DNA of 61,204 bases, from the IMG/VR virus record IMGVR_UViG_3300045988_122465; one strand, 5' to 3'. Below are positions 3,025 to 55,448 of this stretch, piece by piece. The translations under genes and the position numbers were made by a program. The notes under the pieces were generated by a model. It made no database searches. It saw only the letters and a list, made by a program, of their open reading frames with translations, and was not told the DNA's origin. Source of the stretch: a virus. Positions within the stretch are counted from its first letter, which is position 1; every line of letters begins with the position of its first letter.

Positions 3025-3321
3025 TTAATCACCGCAGTATTGAGAGCCCATATACCCTTTACTATTTGAATTGTAACAGTCAGACCAAGTTAAGCTATCC
3101 GGTTGTGCCGGTTGGTTCTTTCTTTCATTATGAGCAGCCCAGCTTGCTTCAACCATAGCTTGTAACTTGGCTTCTTTCTCTGCACGTACCTTTACAGCAT
3201 CTTTCGCCCAACGCCAAGCAGCTTGCAGACATTCGCCCCAAGAGCGACCTTTTCTCTGATACTCATTATTATATAATCTATGAGCATCTTTCATGATTTG
3301 AGATAAGTTGTAGCGTTTCAT
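3025..3321 (-). CDS. Hypothetical 98-aa protein; N-terminal domain shared with 33496..33825 and 57504..57836
   Basis: SQIMKDAH...GRSWGECLQAAWRWAK aligns with SQMKEVM...GYSMSEALKCAWANLK; first gene leftward of a divergent promoter. Confidence 0.7.
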   Translation of the reverse strand: MKRYNLSQIMKDAHRLYNNEYQRKGRSWGECLQAAWRWAKDAVKVRAEKEAKLQAMVEASWAAHNERKNQPAQPDSLTWSDCYNSNSKGYMGSQYCGD

Positions 3322-3359
3322 AATCGTATATTTTTAGCGTTTATACTATTTTGTTGTAC

Positions 3360-3481
3360 TTTGATGATGCAAATATACTATTTAAATAGTACGCATGCGA
3401 ACAAAAAGAACTATTTAATTAGTATATTAACCTTATTTAATACTATTATAATAGTATAAAATGAGAATAAACGTACTTTTG
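3360..3481. promoter_or_regulatory. Divergent promoter/operator region of cassette A
   Basis: Minus-sense TAGTATATTTGCATCATCAAA (-7 box TAtaTTTG); palindromes TACTATTTAAATAGTA (3376-3391), imperfect copy about 3410-3424, TACTATTATAATAGTA (3441-3456); plus-sense TActTTTG at 3474-3481. Confidence 0.6.
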
Positions 3482-7943: not shown

Positions 7944-7978
7944 ATACCGGAAACGGTCTGTGAAGATAGTGCCGGTAT
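7944..7978. terminator. Hairpin at the end of the late operon carrying the GTCTGTGAAGATAGTGC motif in its loop
   Basis: ataccgg...ccggtat stem; loop motif identical (17 nt, reverse complement) to 55306-55322. Confidence 0.4.
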
Positions 7979-19284: not shown

Positions 19285-19707
19285 TTAGGTCCTTAAACTC
19301 GGGTTTGGTTCACAAAACTTCATTGAGCATTTACCAAAAGTTCTGTCTAAACTCTGCGCATAGGTGATACTTTTACCTAAATAAATCAAGTGATAAATGT
19401 CACTGCTGTTAGCTGGAATCTGAATATCAATCACACCTTTGTATAATTCTTCAAAAAAAGCCCTTTTTTTTGCTTGATAATCAGATTTAGAATTGCCTTC
19501 TATGGTAAAAGAGAGCGTTATTTCCCGTTCATCAATTTTGGGATTATTAATTATTACACGTTTTCCATGTTCTAATCGGGATTTATTTTCAATAAATTCT
19601 TTCATAGGTAATGATGCACCAAGTACATCAAGGAATTTATCTCCCATTCTTACACCCCAAGTCTTGTAAGCATCTCTACCATTTATTAATAAATATGCCA
19701 TAACCAT
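19285..19707 (-). CDS. Distal tail protein (Dit)-like
   Basis: 140 aa, immediately downstream of the tape measure gene. Confidence 0.45.
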   Translation of the reverse strand: MVMAYLLINGRDAYKTWGVRMGDKFLDVLGASLPMKEFIENKSRLEHGKRVIINNPKIDEREITLSFTIEGNSKSDYQAKKRAFFEELYKGVIDIQIPANSSDIYHLIYLGKSITYAQSLDRTFGKCSMKFCEPNPSLRT

Positions 19708-40504: not shown

Positions 40505-40536
40505 AATCGTGTCAAATTTAAATCAATACTCAATAG

Positions 40537-40608
40537 TTGCGGGGGGCTGAATCGAACAACCGACCTTCACCAAGTCAAAGTGAAAAGCTACCACTGCTAC
40601 ACCCCGCG
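40537..40608 (-). tRNA. Phage tRNA, anticodon GAC (Val) by position, with atypical features
   Basis: CGCGGGG-UG-UAGC-AGUGGUA-GCUU-U-UCACU-UUGACUU-GGUGA-AGGUC-GGUUG-UUCGAUU-CAGCC-CCCCGCA-A; C1/A72 mismatch, U at position 37. Confidence 0.65.
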
Positions 40609-49738: not shown

Positions 49739-49898
49739 ATCTATCTTCTGATTTAATGATAAAAGGGGAATCCTCACTAAGTTTGGAAAGAAATGTCCGG
49801 ATTATATAAGCCTGTTTCTTACTTAATCCAACCGGAGAGAATGAACCATCATTATTCTTGACCATCATGACAAATGTTCCTGCTTCCAAATCATTCAT
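49722..49898 (-). CDS. Possible 58-aa ORF
   Basis: ATGA overlap with the NinG-like stop; MNDLEAGTFVMMVKNNDGSFSPVGLSKKQAYIIRTFLSKL... Confidence 0.4.
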   Translation of the reverse strand: MNDLEAGTFVMMVKNNDGSFSPVGLSKKQAYIIRTFLSKLSEDSPFIIKSEDRYVQTT

Positions 49899-50374
49899 AA
49901 CCCTTTCTCCTTTCGTAACTTCTTATTAAGTGCTTTGTAATACTTGATTAGCTGTTCGTACTCAAAATCAGTCATTTTGGAAGTACCATCAGCTTTCACT
50001 TTCAGCAAGTCAAATTTCTGTTGCCCGATTTTGGCTATCAGATTCACCCGATAGCCTTCCAAATGATCGGCTTTGAACCTGTTGCAGTGCCGGCATTCGG
50101 CATGGCAATTATTCTCATCAAACCGTGTTGCCAAATGTGTACGACTGAAATAGTGCCCGCAGTCTGCTTGTGTAAACGGCTTTATCTGTCCGCAACTGAT
50201 ACAGCGAAAATATCCGTTCGGCATACAATCACGAAGCCGGATGAAAAGGGAAAACTCCTTGTCGAGTTTAGCTTTCAAATCCGGCTTTTTCTTTACTGTT
50301 ACCCCTGCTTTATCAAACAGAGGTAAAGGCTTGTCTTTTTTCTTAGCTTTGGTTCGTTTAATGTAATACGGCAT
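49895..50374 (-). CDS. NinG/Rap-like recombination endonuclease
   Basis: FIRLRD...CISCGQ...DCGHYFSR...RFDENNCHAECRHCNRFK...YRVNLIAKIGQ parallels lambda NinG. Confidence 0.8.
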   Translation of the reverse strand: MPYYIKRTKAKKKDKPLPLFDKAGVTVKKKPDLKAKLDKEFSLFIRLRDCMPNGYFRCISCGQIKPFTQADCGHYFSRTHLATRFDENNCHAECRHCNRFKADHLEGYRVNLIAKIGQQKFDLLKVKADGTSKMTDFEYEQLIKYYKALNKKLRKEKGL

Positions 50375-50393
50375 TGTTTATAATTTTAGTTTG

Positions 50394-50549
50394 TGGTGGC
50401 AGCAGGATTCGAACCTGCAATGCTTGGCAATCTTCTACATCTTCCGTGTAACACTGGATTGGTTCGTTTTACAATGATGCCCAGTTTTCATAACATCGTA
50501 ACCAAGTCTACTAAGAGTTGTCAGCGTCTACCTATTTCGCCATACCACC
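50394..50549 (-). tRNA. 156-nt tRNA-like gene: canonical acceptor, D arm, T arm with about 87 nt in place of a 7-nt anticodon loop
   Basis: GGUGGUA-UG-GCG-AAAUAGGUAGA-CGC ... GCAGG-UUCGAAU-CCUGC-UGCCACC-A; acceptor pairs 7/7 (one G-U). Confidence 0.55.
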
Positions 50550-50595
50550 ATGTTCGCCCGCCAATCTTCACAGACAGGCAGGCAGGTTAACAAAG

Positions 50596-51333
50596 TTATA
50601 CTTCGATGATTACGATGTCCGGTGCAATTTGTCTGATAGCATCCAACTGTTCATCAATGACTTTATTTTTGTATTCCTCGATGGCCTCATTCGCACCGGC
50701 AGACACAAGAGATAAAGAAACATCCCGACCGTCCACATCAGCGTAAATTTCGATTTCTATCTCTTCACAGGCAAAACCTTTGAAAAGAGGGATGTTTAGT
50801 TTGAAAGATTTTGGAAGGTTGGAATCAACCACCTGTGAGTAGTTATCCACCTTACTACCATTTTCCTCCTTACTGCGTTCGATGTCTTGGTTTACCTTTG
50901 CTTTGAAGTTTTTCAAAGTAGAAACAAGCATCATGTTTTGCGACTTGTCAGTAAAGAAAGCTCGGTGCATCTTCAAAAACTGCGATAATTTGATAGGTTC
51001 CCATTTCTTATCGGTATTAATGCCGAACTCTACCATCTCTTTGGACGGCTGAAGTACTCCGGTGATGACATCTTGGTAATAATTTGTTTCGTTAATCGTT
51101 AAAATCATCCCCATCTTGTCACGATTCACGATAATATTGGACGACTTTTGGTTGATTAAATCAATACGTTTCTCTAACCATCTGTAAGGCGCATCAATCG
51201 TCCCGTCTATCATAACCCTTTCCGGCTCTTTTATCTCCAGTTGTTCGGGGGCTGTTCCCTCTCTCAATACTACTTCAATAGGCGTACCATTATAATCTTT
51301 CGGTACAACCACGTTTAATTTGTTTTCGCTCAT
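50596..51333 (-). CDS. Hypothetical 245-aa protein
   Basis: ORF track. Confidence 0.6.
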   Translation of the reverse strand: MSENKLNVVVPKDYNGTPIEVVLREGTAPEQLEIKEPERVMIDGTIDAPYRWLEKRIDLINQKSSNIIVNRDKMGMILTINETNYYQDVITGVLQPSKEMVEFGINTDKKWEPIKLSQFLKMHRAFFTDKSQNMMLVSTLKNFKAKVNQDIERSKEENGSKVDNYSQVVDSNLPKSFKLNIPLFKGFACEEIEIEIYADVDGRDVSLSLVSAGANEAIEEYKNKVIDEQLDAIRQIAPDIVIIEV

Positions 51334-55207: not shown

Positions 55208-55292
55208 TGGCGGGTGATAGAGGAATCGAACCCCTCTCAATTGTGATAATTGGCTGCGCAGCACAAAGCTCTAACCGATAAGCTAACCACCC
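55208..55292 (-). tRNA. 85-nt tRNA-like gene with a 16-nt anticodon loop, CCA encoded
   Basis: GGGUGGU-UA-GCUU-AUCGGUUA-GAGC-U-UUGUG-[CUGCGCAGCCAAUUAU]-CACAA-UUGAG-AGGGG-UUCGAUU-CCUCU-AUCACCC-G-CCA. Confidence 0.6.
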
Positions 55293-55448
55293 ATATAAGA
55301 AAGGTGCACTATCTTCACAGACGGCACGCCTAGTACAAACACAAAATAAAACACGACAAAAACTACTATATTTTTCAGAATCCGCCCGGCTGGTTTCCCT
55401 TACTCACAGTACTGGTTTATTGCAGGAACCTTATGCCGGATTGTCGGT

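Follow-up and report, generated by a model that had tools for sequence, protein, structure and literature searches.

Phages have reportedly been known to make tRNA-like RNAs since the species 1 RNA of T4. The C4 RNAs of phages P1 and P7 and the CI RNA of P4 are phage antisense RNAs processed by RNase P, in which tRNA-like features recruit maturation and variable loops carry specificity. The bacterial Y RNA YrlA ends in a Ro-binding stem, and the tRNA-like structure (TLS) of turnip yellow mosaic virus (TYMV) is the 3' end of an RNA-virus genome. Engineered tRNA scaffolds, a laboratory design and not a natural family, use tRNA-like features to stabilise a cargo RNA. A general survey of phage structured RNAs (PMC10690425) mentions tRNA-like candidates that are not further specified. 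The gene considered here lies in a 61,204-nt stretch of viral DNA (IMG/VR record IMGVR_UViG_3300045988_122465; "the window" below means this whole stretch), which is a Bacteroides temperate phage related to BS-TP2 (host B. salyersiae). The gene has the ends of a tRNA with a long foreign middle between them, and it belongs to a family in which one shell is combined with dozens of unrelated middles, or cassettes, in phages that are almost identical as well as in many further viral contigs.

On balance, the gene seems best regarded as that of a tRNA-shelled noncoding RNA, cut out by tRNA enzymes, whose cassette serves as a binding or decoy module, a composite statement that we hold with somewhat more belief than doubt. 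Its anatomical part, that the product is a tRNA-shelled noncoding RNA and not a tRNA with an intron, can be put forward with good confidence. Among the options raised by a preliminary description of this DNA, made from its letters alone, the tRNA-scaffolded noncoding RNA is the one favoured by the evidence.

The tRNA shell and its relatives

The gene is 156 nt long, compared with about 70-95 nt for a canonical decoding tRNA. Read on the minus strand, its 5' end is GGUGGUA-UG-GCG-AAAUAGGUAGA-CGC and its 3' end is GCAGG-UUCGAAU-CCUGC-UGCCACC-A, with about 105 nt of non-tRNA sequence between the D arm and the T arm. The tRNA ends, the acceptor stem with seven of seven pairs, the D arm and the canonical T arm, all of them named in the preliminary description, are indeed there, on the minus strand; one of the acceptor pairs is U-G. 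Homologues that share the window's cassette are called type A. The features, with element position p corresponding to window coordinate 50549-(p-1), are as follows.

50394-50549, minus strand: the whole tRNA-shaped RNA gene, 156 nt, with a match to Rfam RF00005
50543-50549, minus strand: 5' strand of the acceptor stem, GGUGGUA (positions 1-7), followed by U8 and G9; pairs 7/7 with 50395-50401
50524-50540, minus strand: D arm, GCG-AAAUAGGUAGA-CGC (positions 10-26), a 3-bp stem with a loop typical of class II tRNA-Leu
50507-50523, minus strand: 17-nt linker UGACAACUCUUAGUAGA (positions 27-43), which replaces the 5' half of an anticodon arm
50501-50506, minus strand: 5' strand of the closing helix, CUUGGU (positions 44-49), pairing with GCCAAG at 50423-50428
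50453-50497, minus strand: H-type pseudoknot (positions 53-97), in which stems Pd and Pa interleave
50436-50450, minus strand: hairpin Pb, UACA-CGGAAGA-UGUA (positions 100-114); pair 103:111 is G-C in 14 homologues and A-U in 7
50431-50434, minus strand: AAGA (positions 116-119), complementary to UCUU of the linker (positions 34-37; 50513-50516)
50419-50428, minus strand: 3' strand of the closing helix, GCCAAG (positions 122-127), and a spacer, CAUU (positions 128-131), ending in U48
50402-50418, minus strand: T arm, GCAGG-UUCGAAU-CCUGC (positions 132-148), invariant in type A
50394-50401, minus strand: 3' strand of the acceptor stem, UGCCACC (positions 149-155), and discriminator A (156)
50556-50598, minus strand: leader, with TAACUUUG over the stop codon of the DUF2303 gene, then a hairpin GCCUGCC...GGCGGGC with loop motif GUCUGUGAAGAU

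Over its full length, the element matches the Rfam tRNA model (RF00005) with 35.2 bits, where the gathering score is 29 and E is 0.0011 for the whole window, but the alignment succeeds only with about 90 nt assigned to insertions, and all five anticodon-stem pairs are flagged as non-standard. The type-A cassette pattern occurs in 64 contigs, as 31 unique variants with at least five different acceptor shells, and covariation was counted in an alignment of 21 type-A sequences. In these homologues, four of the seven acceptor pairs have changed on both sides, and 100% of cells are paired. The score of the shell and the covariation of its acceptor stem put the likeness to tRNA beyond chance, and they bear out the earlier picture of a tRNA-like gene whose ends are perfect and whose long middle is foreign. 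What is reproduced is the L-shaped core of a class II tRNA-Leu: the 7-bp acceptor stem, U8, the D arm, U48, the T arm and A73. There is no anticodon arm, and what stands in its place is closed by a helix before the T stem and contains a pseudoknot and a hairpin.

The extent to which the middle varies is best seen at the window's own locus. A set of 80 viral contigs (cited below by handles such as L033) was fetched through the DUF2303 protein encoded just upstream of the element, which shows 87-100% identity within the set. In 77 of the 80, one or more such genes lie just downstream; L033, L058 and L059 have none. Among the 77 loci there are 15 unrelated middles, about 50-200 nt long, and GenBank phage records add two more types, for a total of at least 17. 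The acceptor stems differ by type (GGUGGUA, GGUAUCG, GGAGAAG, GGAUAGC, GGAUAAG, GGGAUAA, GGGGAUG, GGGCGUA, GGGCGCA) and all pair, except in the type H copy L003, a GenBank scaffold, where only 5 bp form, by reading. Most relatives have the D arm GCGGAAUUGGUAGACGC, as in 60 real bacterial tRNA-Leu genes. BS-TP2 itself carries, at the same position, an element of 108 nt with a near-identical Leu-type D arm, an identical T arm and a compensatorily changed acceptor stem (GGUAUCG/CGAUACC), around a 57-nt middle unrelated to the window's. Of two GenBank gut-virome scaffolds, one has yet another unrelated middle and the other an 85%-identical copy of the window's; six viral contigs hold an identical copy of the window element. 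Cassettes are exchanged, judging from the presence of the type-A cassette in at least five acceptor shells and from the number of different middles at this one locus.

The family extends well past these phages. A scan of IMG/VR for Leu-type D arms with a T loop 45-75 nt further on gave at least 120 stretches. Among the matches listed, at least 89 unique elements (93-250 nt) can be told apart, nearly all with 7/7 acceptor stems and 5/5 T stems, and they comprise at least 44 different acceptor sequences and at least 75 unrelated middles; the same listed elements keep tRNA-type T loops, mostly UUCGAAU or UUCGAGU, and have discriminator A in 72/89 and, immediately 5' of the T stem, a U (position 48) in 84/89. 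A large subgroup has the shell AGUCAGG...CCUGACU-A, for which a BLAST search of cultured phage genomes with one element gave no match. Many elements lie in early replication/recombination modules, adjoined by NinB, NinG, SSB, ERF, helicase and O-like genes, and others lie inside the tRNA arrays of large phages. By the Rfam tRNA model, elements of the family score 31-41 bits, compared with 48-66 for real tRNAs in the same loci. On bacterial genomes, the same D-arm/T-loop pattern finds mostly ordinary tRNA-Leu genes, which were used as controls, together with members of the family in Bacteroidota (Cnuella, Flavobacterium, Sphingobacterium, Chryseobacterium, Parabacteroides) and a few other phyla. 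Distinct cassette types are kept from Bacteroides phages to a Flavobacterium genome. With its shell, its lack of an anticodon arm and its closing helix, the window element is a member of this family of Leu-type tRNA-shelled cassette RNAs.

Some of what the scans turned up is of interest in its own right. In Alphaproteobacteria genomes (L252, L260, L316, L237, L285), some genes resemble tRNA-Leu and are normal in shell and variable arm, but a long, rod-like irregular hairpin of about 40-50 nt replaces the anticodon arm. Metagenome-assembled genomes of Gammaproteobacteria (L236, L232, L264, L266, L295) have tRNAs of 98-101 nt that combine a Leu body and a proper anticodon arm with a very long variable arm and a non-Leu anticodon (CGC, GGA, GGC, CAC); it is possible that these recode or mistranslate. 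Long tRNA-like RNAs sometimes stand in tandem (L027 4249-4620, L114 2036-2350, L142 1224-1512; also L024). Another shell type found at the hotspot after DUF2303 has a G3-U70 pair (GGGGAUG or GGGGGUG with CAUCUCC-A; L024 3720-3861, and L022, L026 and L055 at about 3285-3430). Its 5' part resembles the tRNA-like domain of transfer-messenger RNA (tmRNA), but by the Rfam tmRNA model it reaches 29.5 bits, short of the gathering score (47), and it has no tag frame; one variant carries a perfect Shine-Dalgarno-like AAGGAGGU. T-loop variants UGCAAGU and UGCAAAU, in which U55 has become G, mostly accompany D loops without G18 G19 (L002, L009, L052, L057), with L025 as an exception. This joint change may be a coordinated shift of the elbow contact, or it may be the decay of that contact.

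The insert and the intron alternative

Across the family, the insert is closed by a helix that adjoins the T stem. Helices with a 3' strand ending 1-4 nt short of the T stem are strongly enriched (z = 6.5), with a mean length of 5.78 bp compared with 4.76 bp in shuffled sequences, a value reached by 0/300 dinucleotide-preserving shuffles. By position, this closing helix is an enlarged variable arm. In type G, it covaries (GAGCUUU/AAAGCUC, UUGUAAU/AUUACAG, AUAACAGC/GCUGUUAU) around conserved GAGUACUG and UACUCAAAGCAG, and in type B, the variable-arm stem does so as well (CGAG/CUCG vs UGAG/CUCA). The counterpart in the window is CUUGGU/GCCAAG plus CAUU, which is the helix chosen by the minimum-free-energy fold (ViennaRNA) once the tRNA shell is enforced.

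Inside the closing helix of type A, three stems carry compensatory changes, as does the acceptor stem outside it, so the check by covariation that the preliminary description had proposed came out in favour of structure. In stem Pd, GAUG (53-56) pairs with CAUC (71-74); pair 56:71 is G-C in 20 sequences and A-U in 1, and pair 53:74 is G-C in 20 and G-U in 1. In stem Pa, ACUGG (65-69) pairs with CCAGU (93-97), and pair 67:95 is G-C in 8, U-A in 7 and A-U in 4. Since Pd and Pa interleave, they form an H-type pseudoknot, whose third loop is A-rich (AUUGUAAAACGAACCAAU, 75-92) and includes GUAAAA, a hexamer present in 6/17 types. The third stem is that of hairpin Pb, with 100-103 paired to 111-114. 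The insert is therefore a selected structure. The folding energy of the whole molecule gives z = -0.30.

The compensatory changes inside the insert and the size of the family also refute the suggestion that the gene is a tRNA disrupted at random. In a broader form of this idea, the element would be a decaying pseudogene or a randomly disrupted tRNA, or else a feature of the DNA, such as a recombination or attachment site, with no function as RNA. Degenerate T and D loops in some variants would suit decay, and the conserved D-arm and T-arm sequences could, to go by the type-A shells, be crossover points for cassette exchange. However, the acceptor stems covary and are 7/7 in nearly all of at least 44 versions, the tertiary nucleotides are kept, there are hundreds of copies across viral contigs, and the integrases of BS-TP2 are more than 12 kb away from its copy. 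This explanation is hardly credible.

The outer part of the insert is less easily read. The preliminary description had drawn a 5-bp helix like an anticodon stem, GACAA (50522-50518) with UUGCC (50430-50426), around a loop of about 87 nt. The complementarity exists, with one A-C mismatch, and encloses 50517-50431 (87 nt), but its framing as an anticodon stem does not hold up: a canonical anticodon arm, with a 5-bp stem and a 7-nt loop that has U33 and a purine at 37, follows the D stem in 1/67 non-redundant representatives of the family vs 59/60 real tRNA-Leu controls, and both the fold and the family architecture prefer CUUGGU/GCCAAG. Nearest-neighbour energies are similar for the two models. 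As GACAA/UUGCC never varies, it is beyond the reach of covariation, and it competes with CUUGGU/GCCAAG for the same nucleotides. The family shows no enrichment of helices that begin immediately after the D stem (z = 1.4). Within the linker are both GACAA and UCUU. The complementarity noted earlier between this UCUU and AAGA is present, and AAGA never varies among the 21 homologues; the two could form a second pseudoknot, joining the linker to the 3' part of the insert. The internal helix UUGGUU/AACCAA exists in the window, as had been claimed, but it is broken in 8/21 homologues and by indels, with no compensatory change. The linker as a whole is invariant in the 21 homologues; the search pattern fixed only positions 37-43, and the 10 nt 5' of these are unchanged too.

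A decoding tRNA is ruled out for this element by the non-standard anticodon stem in the Rfam alignment and by ARAGORN, which in its default mode makes no call for it (the only calls in the window are a tRNA-Val at 40536-40608 and an odd tRNA-Arg at 55208-55292). The same two results speak against a standard tRNA fold that had simply been overlooked, a possibility for which the preliminary description had allowed.

There remains the case that the element becomes a decoding tRNA only after an intervening sequence of 80-87 nt is removed, leaving a tRNA-Lys(CUU) or a tRNA-Leu. For the window and its closest variants, ARAGORN in intron mode (-i0,250; run on 19 types) does propose a tRNA-Lys(CUU) interrupted at 38/39 by an intron of 80 nt, the would-be exon parts are invariant, and by the same program type B resembles a tRNA-Leu(UAG) with a 20-nt insert at 31/32. 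But over all types, the proposed splice positions are inconsistent (31/32, 32/33, 34/35, 38/39, 39/40), as are the anticodons (Lys, Leu, Thr, Tyr, Ser or His, according to type), and for several types there is no call at all. In the intron model for the window, moreover, the anticodon stem is mismatched, and a variable loop of 7 nt accompanies a class II D arm. Removal of one segment restores an arm with 5/5 bp in 1.5% of real sequences vs 5.4% of shuffled ones, and with at least 4/5 bp in 18% vs 34%. Since such solutions are rarer in real sequences than in shuffled ones, the tRNA-Lys(CUU) with its 80-nt intron is what chance would give.

The catalytic core of a group I intron typically takes up 200 nt or more, so that 80-105 nt is too short, and bacteria are not known to have the bulge-helix-bulge (BHB) splicing endonuclease. 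A group I intron was rejected on the grounds that Rfam Intron_gpI has no match and the insert measures 87-105 nt; a genuine 313-nt group I tRNA case from the genome scan (L286) looks quite different. A permissive Rfam scan (E up to 10) of 50300-50650 gave no credible match other than tRNA, with no intron, ribozyme or riboswitch, and similar scans of 32 related loci gave only tRNA matches and one weak tmRNA match, with no intron, ribozyme or riboswitch family. The small tRNA intron that had been offered as an option is thus very improbable.

Maturation, charging and the role of the cassette

A DUF2303 gene (50596-51333) precedes the element and a NinG gene (49895-50374) follows it, all three on the minus strand. 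No terminator was found near it when one was looked for, so the RNA must be cut from the operon transcript. The flanks are suited to this. The base at -1 of the window element is U, and in 106 elements of the family, U is at -1 in 79 and G never; C almost always follows the discriminator, and CCA is encoded in only 4. In the window, the nucleotides directly 3' of the gene are CAA and not CCA. In all this, the flanks of the family resemble those of tRNA genes, and the U at -1, the C after the discriminator and the rarity of an encoded CCA point to a putative maturation by RNase P and CCA addition into a stable RNA. According to the model proposed here, the shell would direct RNase P to cut at G1, a 3' nuclease would trim the other end, and the CCA-adding enzyme would complete it. 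The RNA would in this way be excised from the early DUF2303-NinG transcript and would accumulate as a stable, L-shaped, tRNA-like particle that displays the cassette.

Perhaps, however, the cut itself is all that matters. The tRNA shape would then be a processing signal in cis, there only to have RNase P separate DUF2303 from NinG, and the middle would be tolerated filler. The element does lie inside an operon without a terminator, U at -1 and C at +74 are conserved, and in one relative (L029 3383-3423), there is a 41-nt minihelix consisting of an acceptor stem and a T arm only. Filler, though, would show neither compensatory changes nor an invariant 17-nt linker; inserts of up to 200 nt would be costly filler; many relatives have the element as a unit of its own with a terminator, or within the tRNA arrays of large phages; and cassette types would not be expected to persist from Bacteroides phages to a Flavobacterium genome. 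A mere processing signal is for these reasons improbable.

The stable RNA might also be leucylated. This is plausible because bacterial leucyl-tRNA synthetase (LeuRS) does not read the anticodon and A73 predominates in the family. In the strongest version of this thought, charging by LeuRS would be essential, and the RNA would be an aminoacylated tRNA mimic that acts on the ribosome or EF-Tu, as a donor of amino acids or as a sink; the cassette would modulate or target that activity, loosely as in tmRNA. LeuRS and alanyl-tRNA synthetase (AlaRS) both ignore the anticodon, and the shells found are of the Leu type, with some of the Ala/tmRNA type that has G3-U70. The frequencies of A73 and U48 among the matches listed, the retention of tRNA-type T loops and the sub-threshold tmRNA match of one shell type (29.5 bits) all fit. 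On the other side, the discriminator is U in 9/21 type-A variants and also in the shells of types K, L and Q, there is no tag reading frame, and ARAGORN in tmRNA mode finds nothing. Some type-A variants with a D loop lacking G18 G19 and with the T loop UGCAAGU nevertheless keep the cassette with its compensatory changes. Since those variants, like the ones with U73, preserve a compensated cassette, charging is probably not the core of the function, which, as far as the alignment can tell, does not appear to need LeuRS identity strictly. We regard the charged mimic as unlikely, though it should be kept in mind.

If the shell is what brings about maturation, then the cassette would be the working part, most likely a module that binds protein or RNA and serves as a decoy, a sponge or a regulator in conflict between phage and host or between phages. 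A role in conflict would explain why the gene is accessory, why the cassette is exchanged as a whole unit and why it sits in a hotspot of accessory genes. It is the accessory status, the exchange of cassettes, the other genes found in the slot and the lack of a target in the phage itself that point, by conjecture, to binding or decoy, and this specific role is put forward tentatively, with less belief than doubt. Nothing supports a decoy for anticodon nucleases, another of the options in the preliminary description, since the RNA has no anticodon loop to present; a decoy of some broader kind is possible.

Several points weigh against the cassette as a binding or decoy module, or against the structure on which it depends. 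The evidence for an anti-defence or decoy role consists of genomic context and the pattern of diversity. No recurrent protein partner emerged from the gene neighbourhoods of the family, where only ordinary replication and recombination genes were found. Within the window, there is no antisense or identical match of at least 12 nt to the element, shorter matches are at chance level, and the linker has no target elsewhere even with up to 3 mismatches; on these same grounds, an antisense regulator of the phage's own genes was rejected. The outermost helices (GACAA/UUGCC, UCUU/AAGA and CUUGGU/GCCAAG) are invariant, partly because the search pattern fixed those positions, and their pairing is accordingly putative. 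A pseudoknot between linker and insert gives z = 2.2 across the family, reached by 4/300 shuffles, which supports it weakly, and tests on single sequences are not significant. Also, since the Leu-type and G3-U70 shells can both be read without an anticodon, charging may matter more than a pure scaffold would lead one to expect.

Taken more broadly, there may be a large undescribed class of tRNA-Leu-shelled RNAs in phages from many environments, whose interchangeable pseudoknotted cassettes would be diversifying decoys or regulators directed against factors of the host or of rival phages; this is a possibility to be entertained with more doubt than belief. Its carriers, under the same doubt, would be temperate Bacteroidota phages and large phages with tRNA arrays, and the shell would hijack tRNA maturation and perhaps LeuRS. 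Were this so, the class would be to RNA what anti-defence islands are to protein. If the cassettes do bind or act as decoys, the family would be a tRNA scaffold system of natural origin and would add a new layer to the conflict between phage and host, and if the RNAs are leucylated, they would form a new class of non-decoding aminoacyl-tRNA mimics. The function is directly testable, as the cultured Bacteroides phages BS-TP2 and BF1-TP2 carry the family.

The surroundings of the element have features of their own. The leader upstream of it is kept in nearly all related loci, irrespective of the cassette downstream, and CTGTGAAGAT occurs three times in the window vs 0.15 expected. Hairpins with the loop GUCUGUGAAGAU(A/U) are found at 50556-50583 (minus strand), just upstream of the tRNA-like gene, at 55303-55330 (minus strand), just upstream of the odd tRNA-Arg, and at 7944-7978 (plus strand), in an intergenic region at about 7.95 kb. 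In relatives, the end of the DUF2303 gene keeps this hairpin irrespective of what comes next. It could be a promoter-proximal, antitermination or processing element.

The slot after DUF2303 in relatives also holds a radical SAM gene like RlmN/Cfr and a DUF3268 gene, the latter matching the Lar restriction-alleviation family weakly and below cutoff. The radical SAM gene (260 aa; L027 3301-4083, also L078, L048, L049 and L053) lies between the DUF2303 and tRNA-like genes, is followed by an open reading frame of 44 aa, and has RlmN/Cfr RNA methyltransferases as its best match (TIGR00048; E = 3.7e-23, though far short of the family cutoff). In L002, L003, L022, L027 and others, a conserved stretch, CAUAAAUGUGAGCCACACAUAAAUGGCA(A/U)GGGUUAGU.AAUAAUGGUUGUG, lies about 5-90 nt downstream of the element and precedes a terminator, GCCCCGGAGAAUACGCUUCGGGGCUUUU. 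The stretch often precedes the DUF3268 zinc-finger gene, is absent from the window and has no Rfam match.

The odd tRNA-Arg (55208-55292, minus strand) is a second non-canonical tRNA of the window, an Arg-like cloverleaf with a 16-nt anticodon loop, CUGCGCAGCCAAUUAU. Its 5-bp anticodon stem covaries (UUGUG/CACAA in the window, UCGUG/CACGA in BS-TP2), and it is found in at least 119 viral contigs. The spacing from D arm to T loop is 35 nt in all but one variant, and because it is so constant, the enlarged loop (consensus YUGCGCAANCAAUUNN) is a regular feature and not damage.

Comparison with known systems

The family is large, structured and apparently undescribed, although tRNA-like noncoding RNAs of phages as such are already known. 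No description of tRNA-shelled cassette RNAs was found in the literature searched, and papers beyond that coverage could hold one. Members are abundant, very diverse in their cargo and easy to recognise by a Leu-type shell without an anticodon arm. Such genes are missed by ARAGORN in its default mode, and this is reflected in annotation: the BS-TP2 copy (L001 3498-3604; PQ571275 about 19555-19662) has none in GenBank, and the BF1-TP2 copy (L004 1405-1569; PQ571263 3787-3951) is overlapped by a coding sequence for a 54-aa 'hypothetical protein', gp8, which is probably a mis-annotation.

YrlA and the viral TLS share with the window element a mimicry of the tRNA elbow and acceptor by which tRNA enzymes are engaged. 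In the window element, unlike YrlA, the ends form an acceptor stem, and neither YrlA nor a viral TLS gives an Rfam match in the 50300-50650 region or in the 32 related loci. C4 and CI differ in that they lack a full tRNA shell and pair with known targets in the same phage, where the window offers no such target.

With tmRNA, which is itself charged without an anticodon, the element shares a tRNA-like domain of acceptor and T arm and an anticodon region replaced by pseudoknotted RNA; the hotspot shell GGGGAUG.../CAUCUCC-A has G3-U70 and a sub-threshold tmRNA match. The window element differs in having a D stem, U3-A70, no tag frame and 156 nt in place of about 350. A tmRNA was rejected as an identification, with ARAGORN -m negative in 19 type representatives and no Rfam tmRNA match in the window. 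By eye, no tag is plausible, and the frame is shifted by an indel that separates the window from L002.

T4 species 1 RNA (rnaC) is a stable phage-encoded RNA of about 140 nt, specified among tRNA genes, for which the T4 record annotates no function. Compared by features only, it has in common with the window element a perfect T arm (CCGGG-UUCGAAU-CCCGG), ends that pair in the manner of an acceptor and, between them, a long stretch of non-tRNA sequence. It differs in having no visible Leu-type D arm and, by reading, U-U mismatches in the acceptor; also, no cassette diversity is known for rnaC.

In its shell, the family stands close to class II tRNA-Leu, from which the shell derives. The two have in common an acceptor stem of 7 bp, U8, a D stem of 3 bp whose loop is GAAUUGGUAGA or a near variant of it, U48, a T loop of the UUCGAAU type, A73 in most members and a helix 5' of the T stem that is like a long variable arm. 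They part company in the middle, which in a tRNA-Leu measures about 35 nt and in the family 50-200 nt, for a total of 93-250 nt, and which in the family holds a cassette where the tRNA has its anticodon arm.

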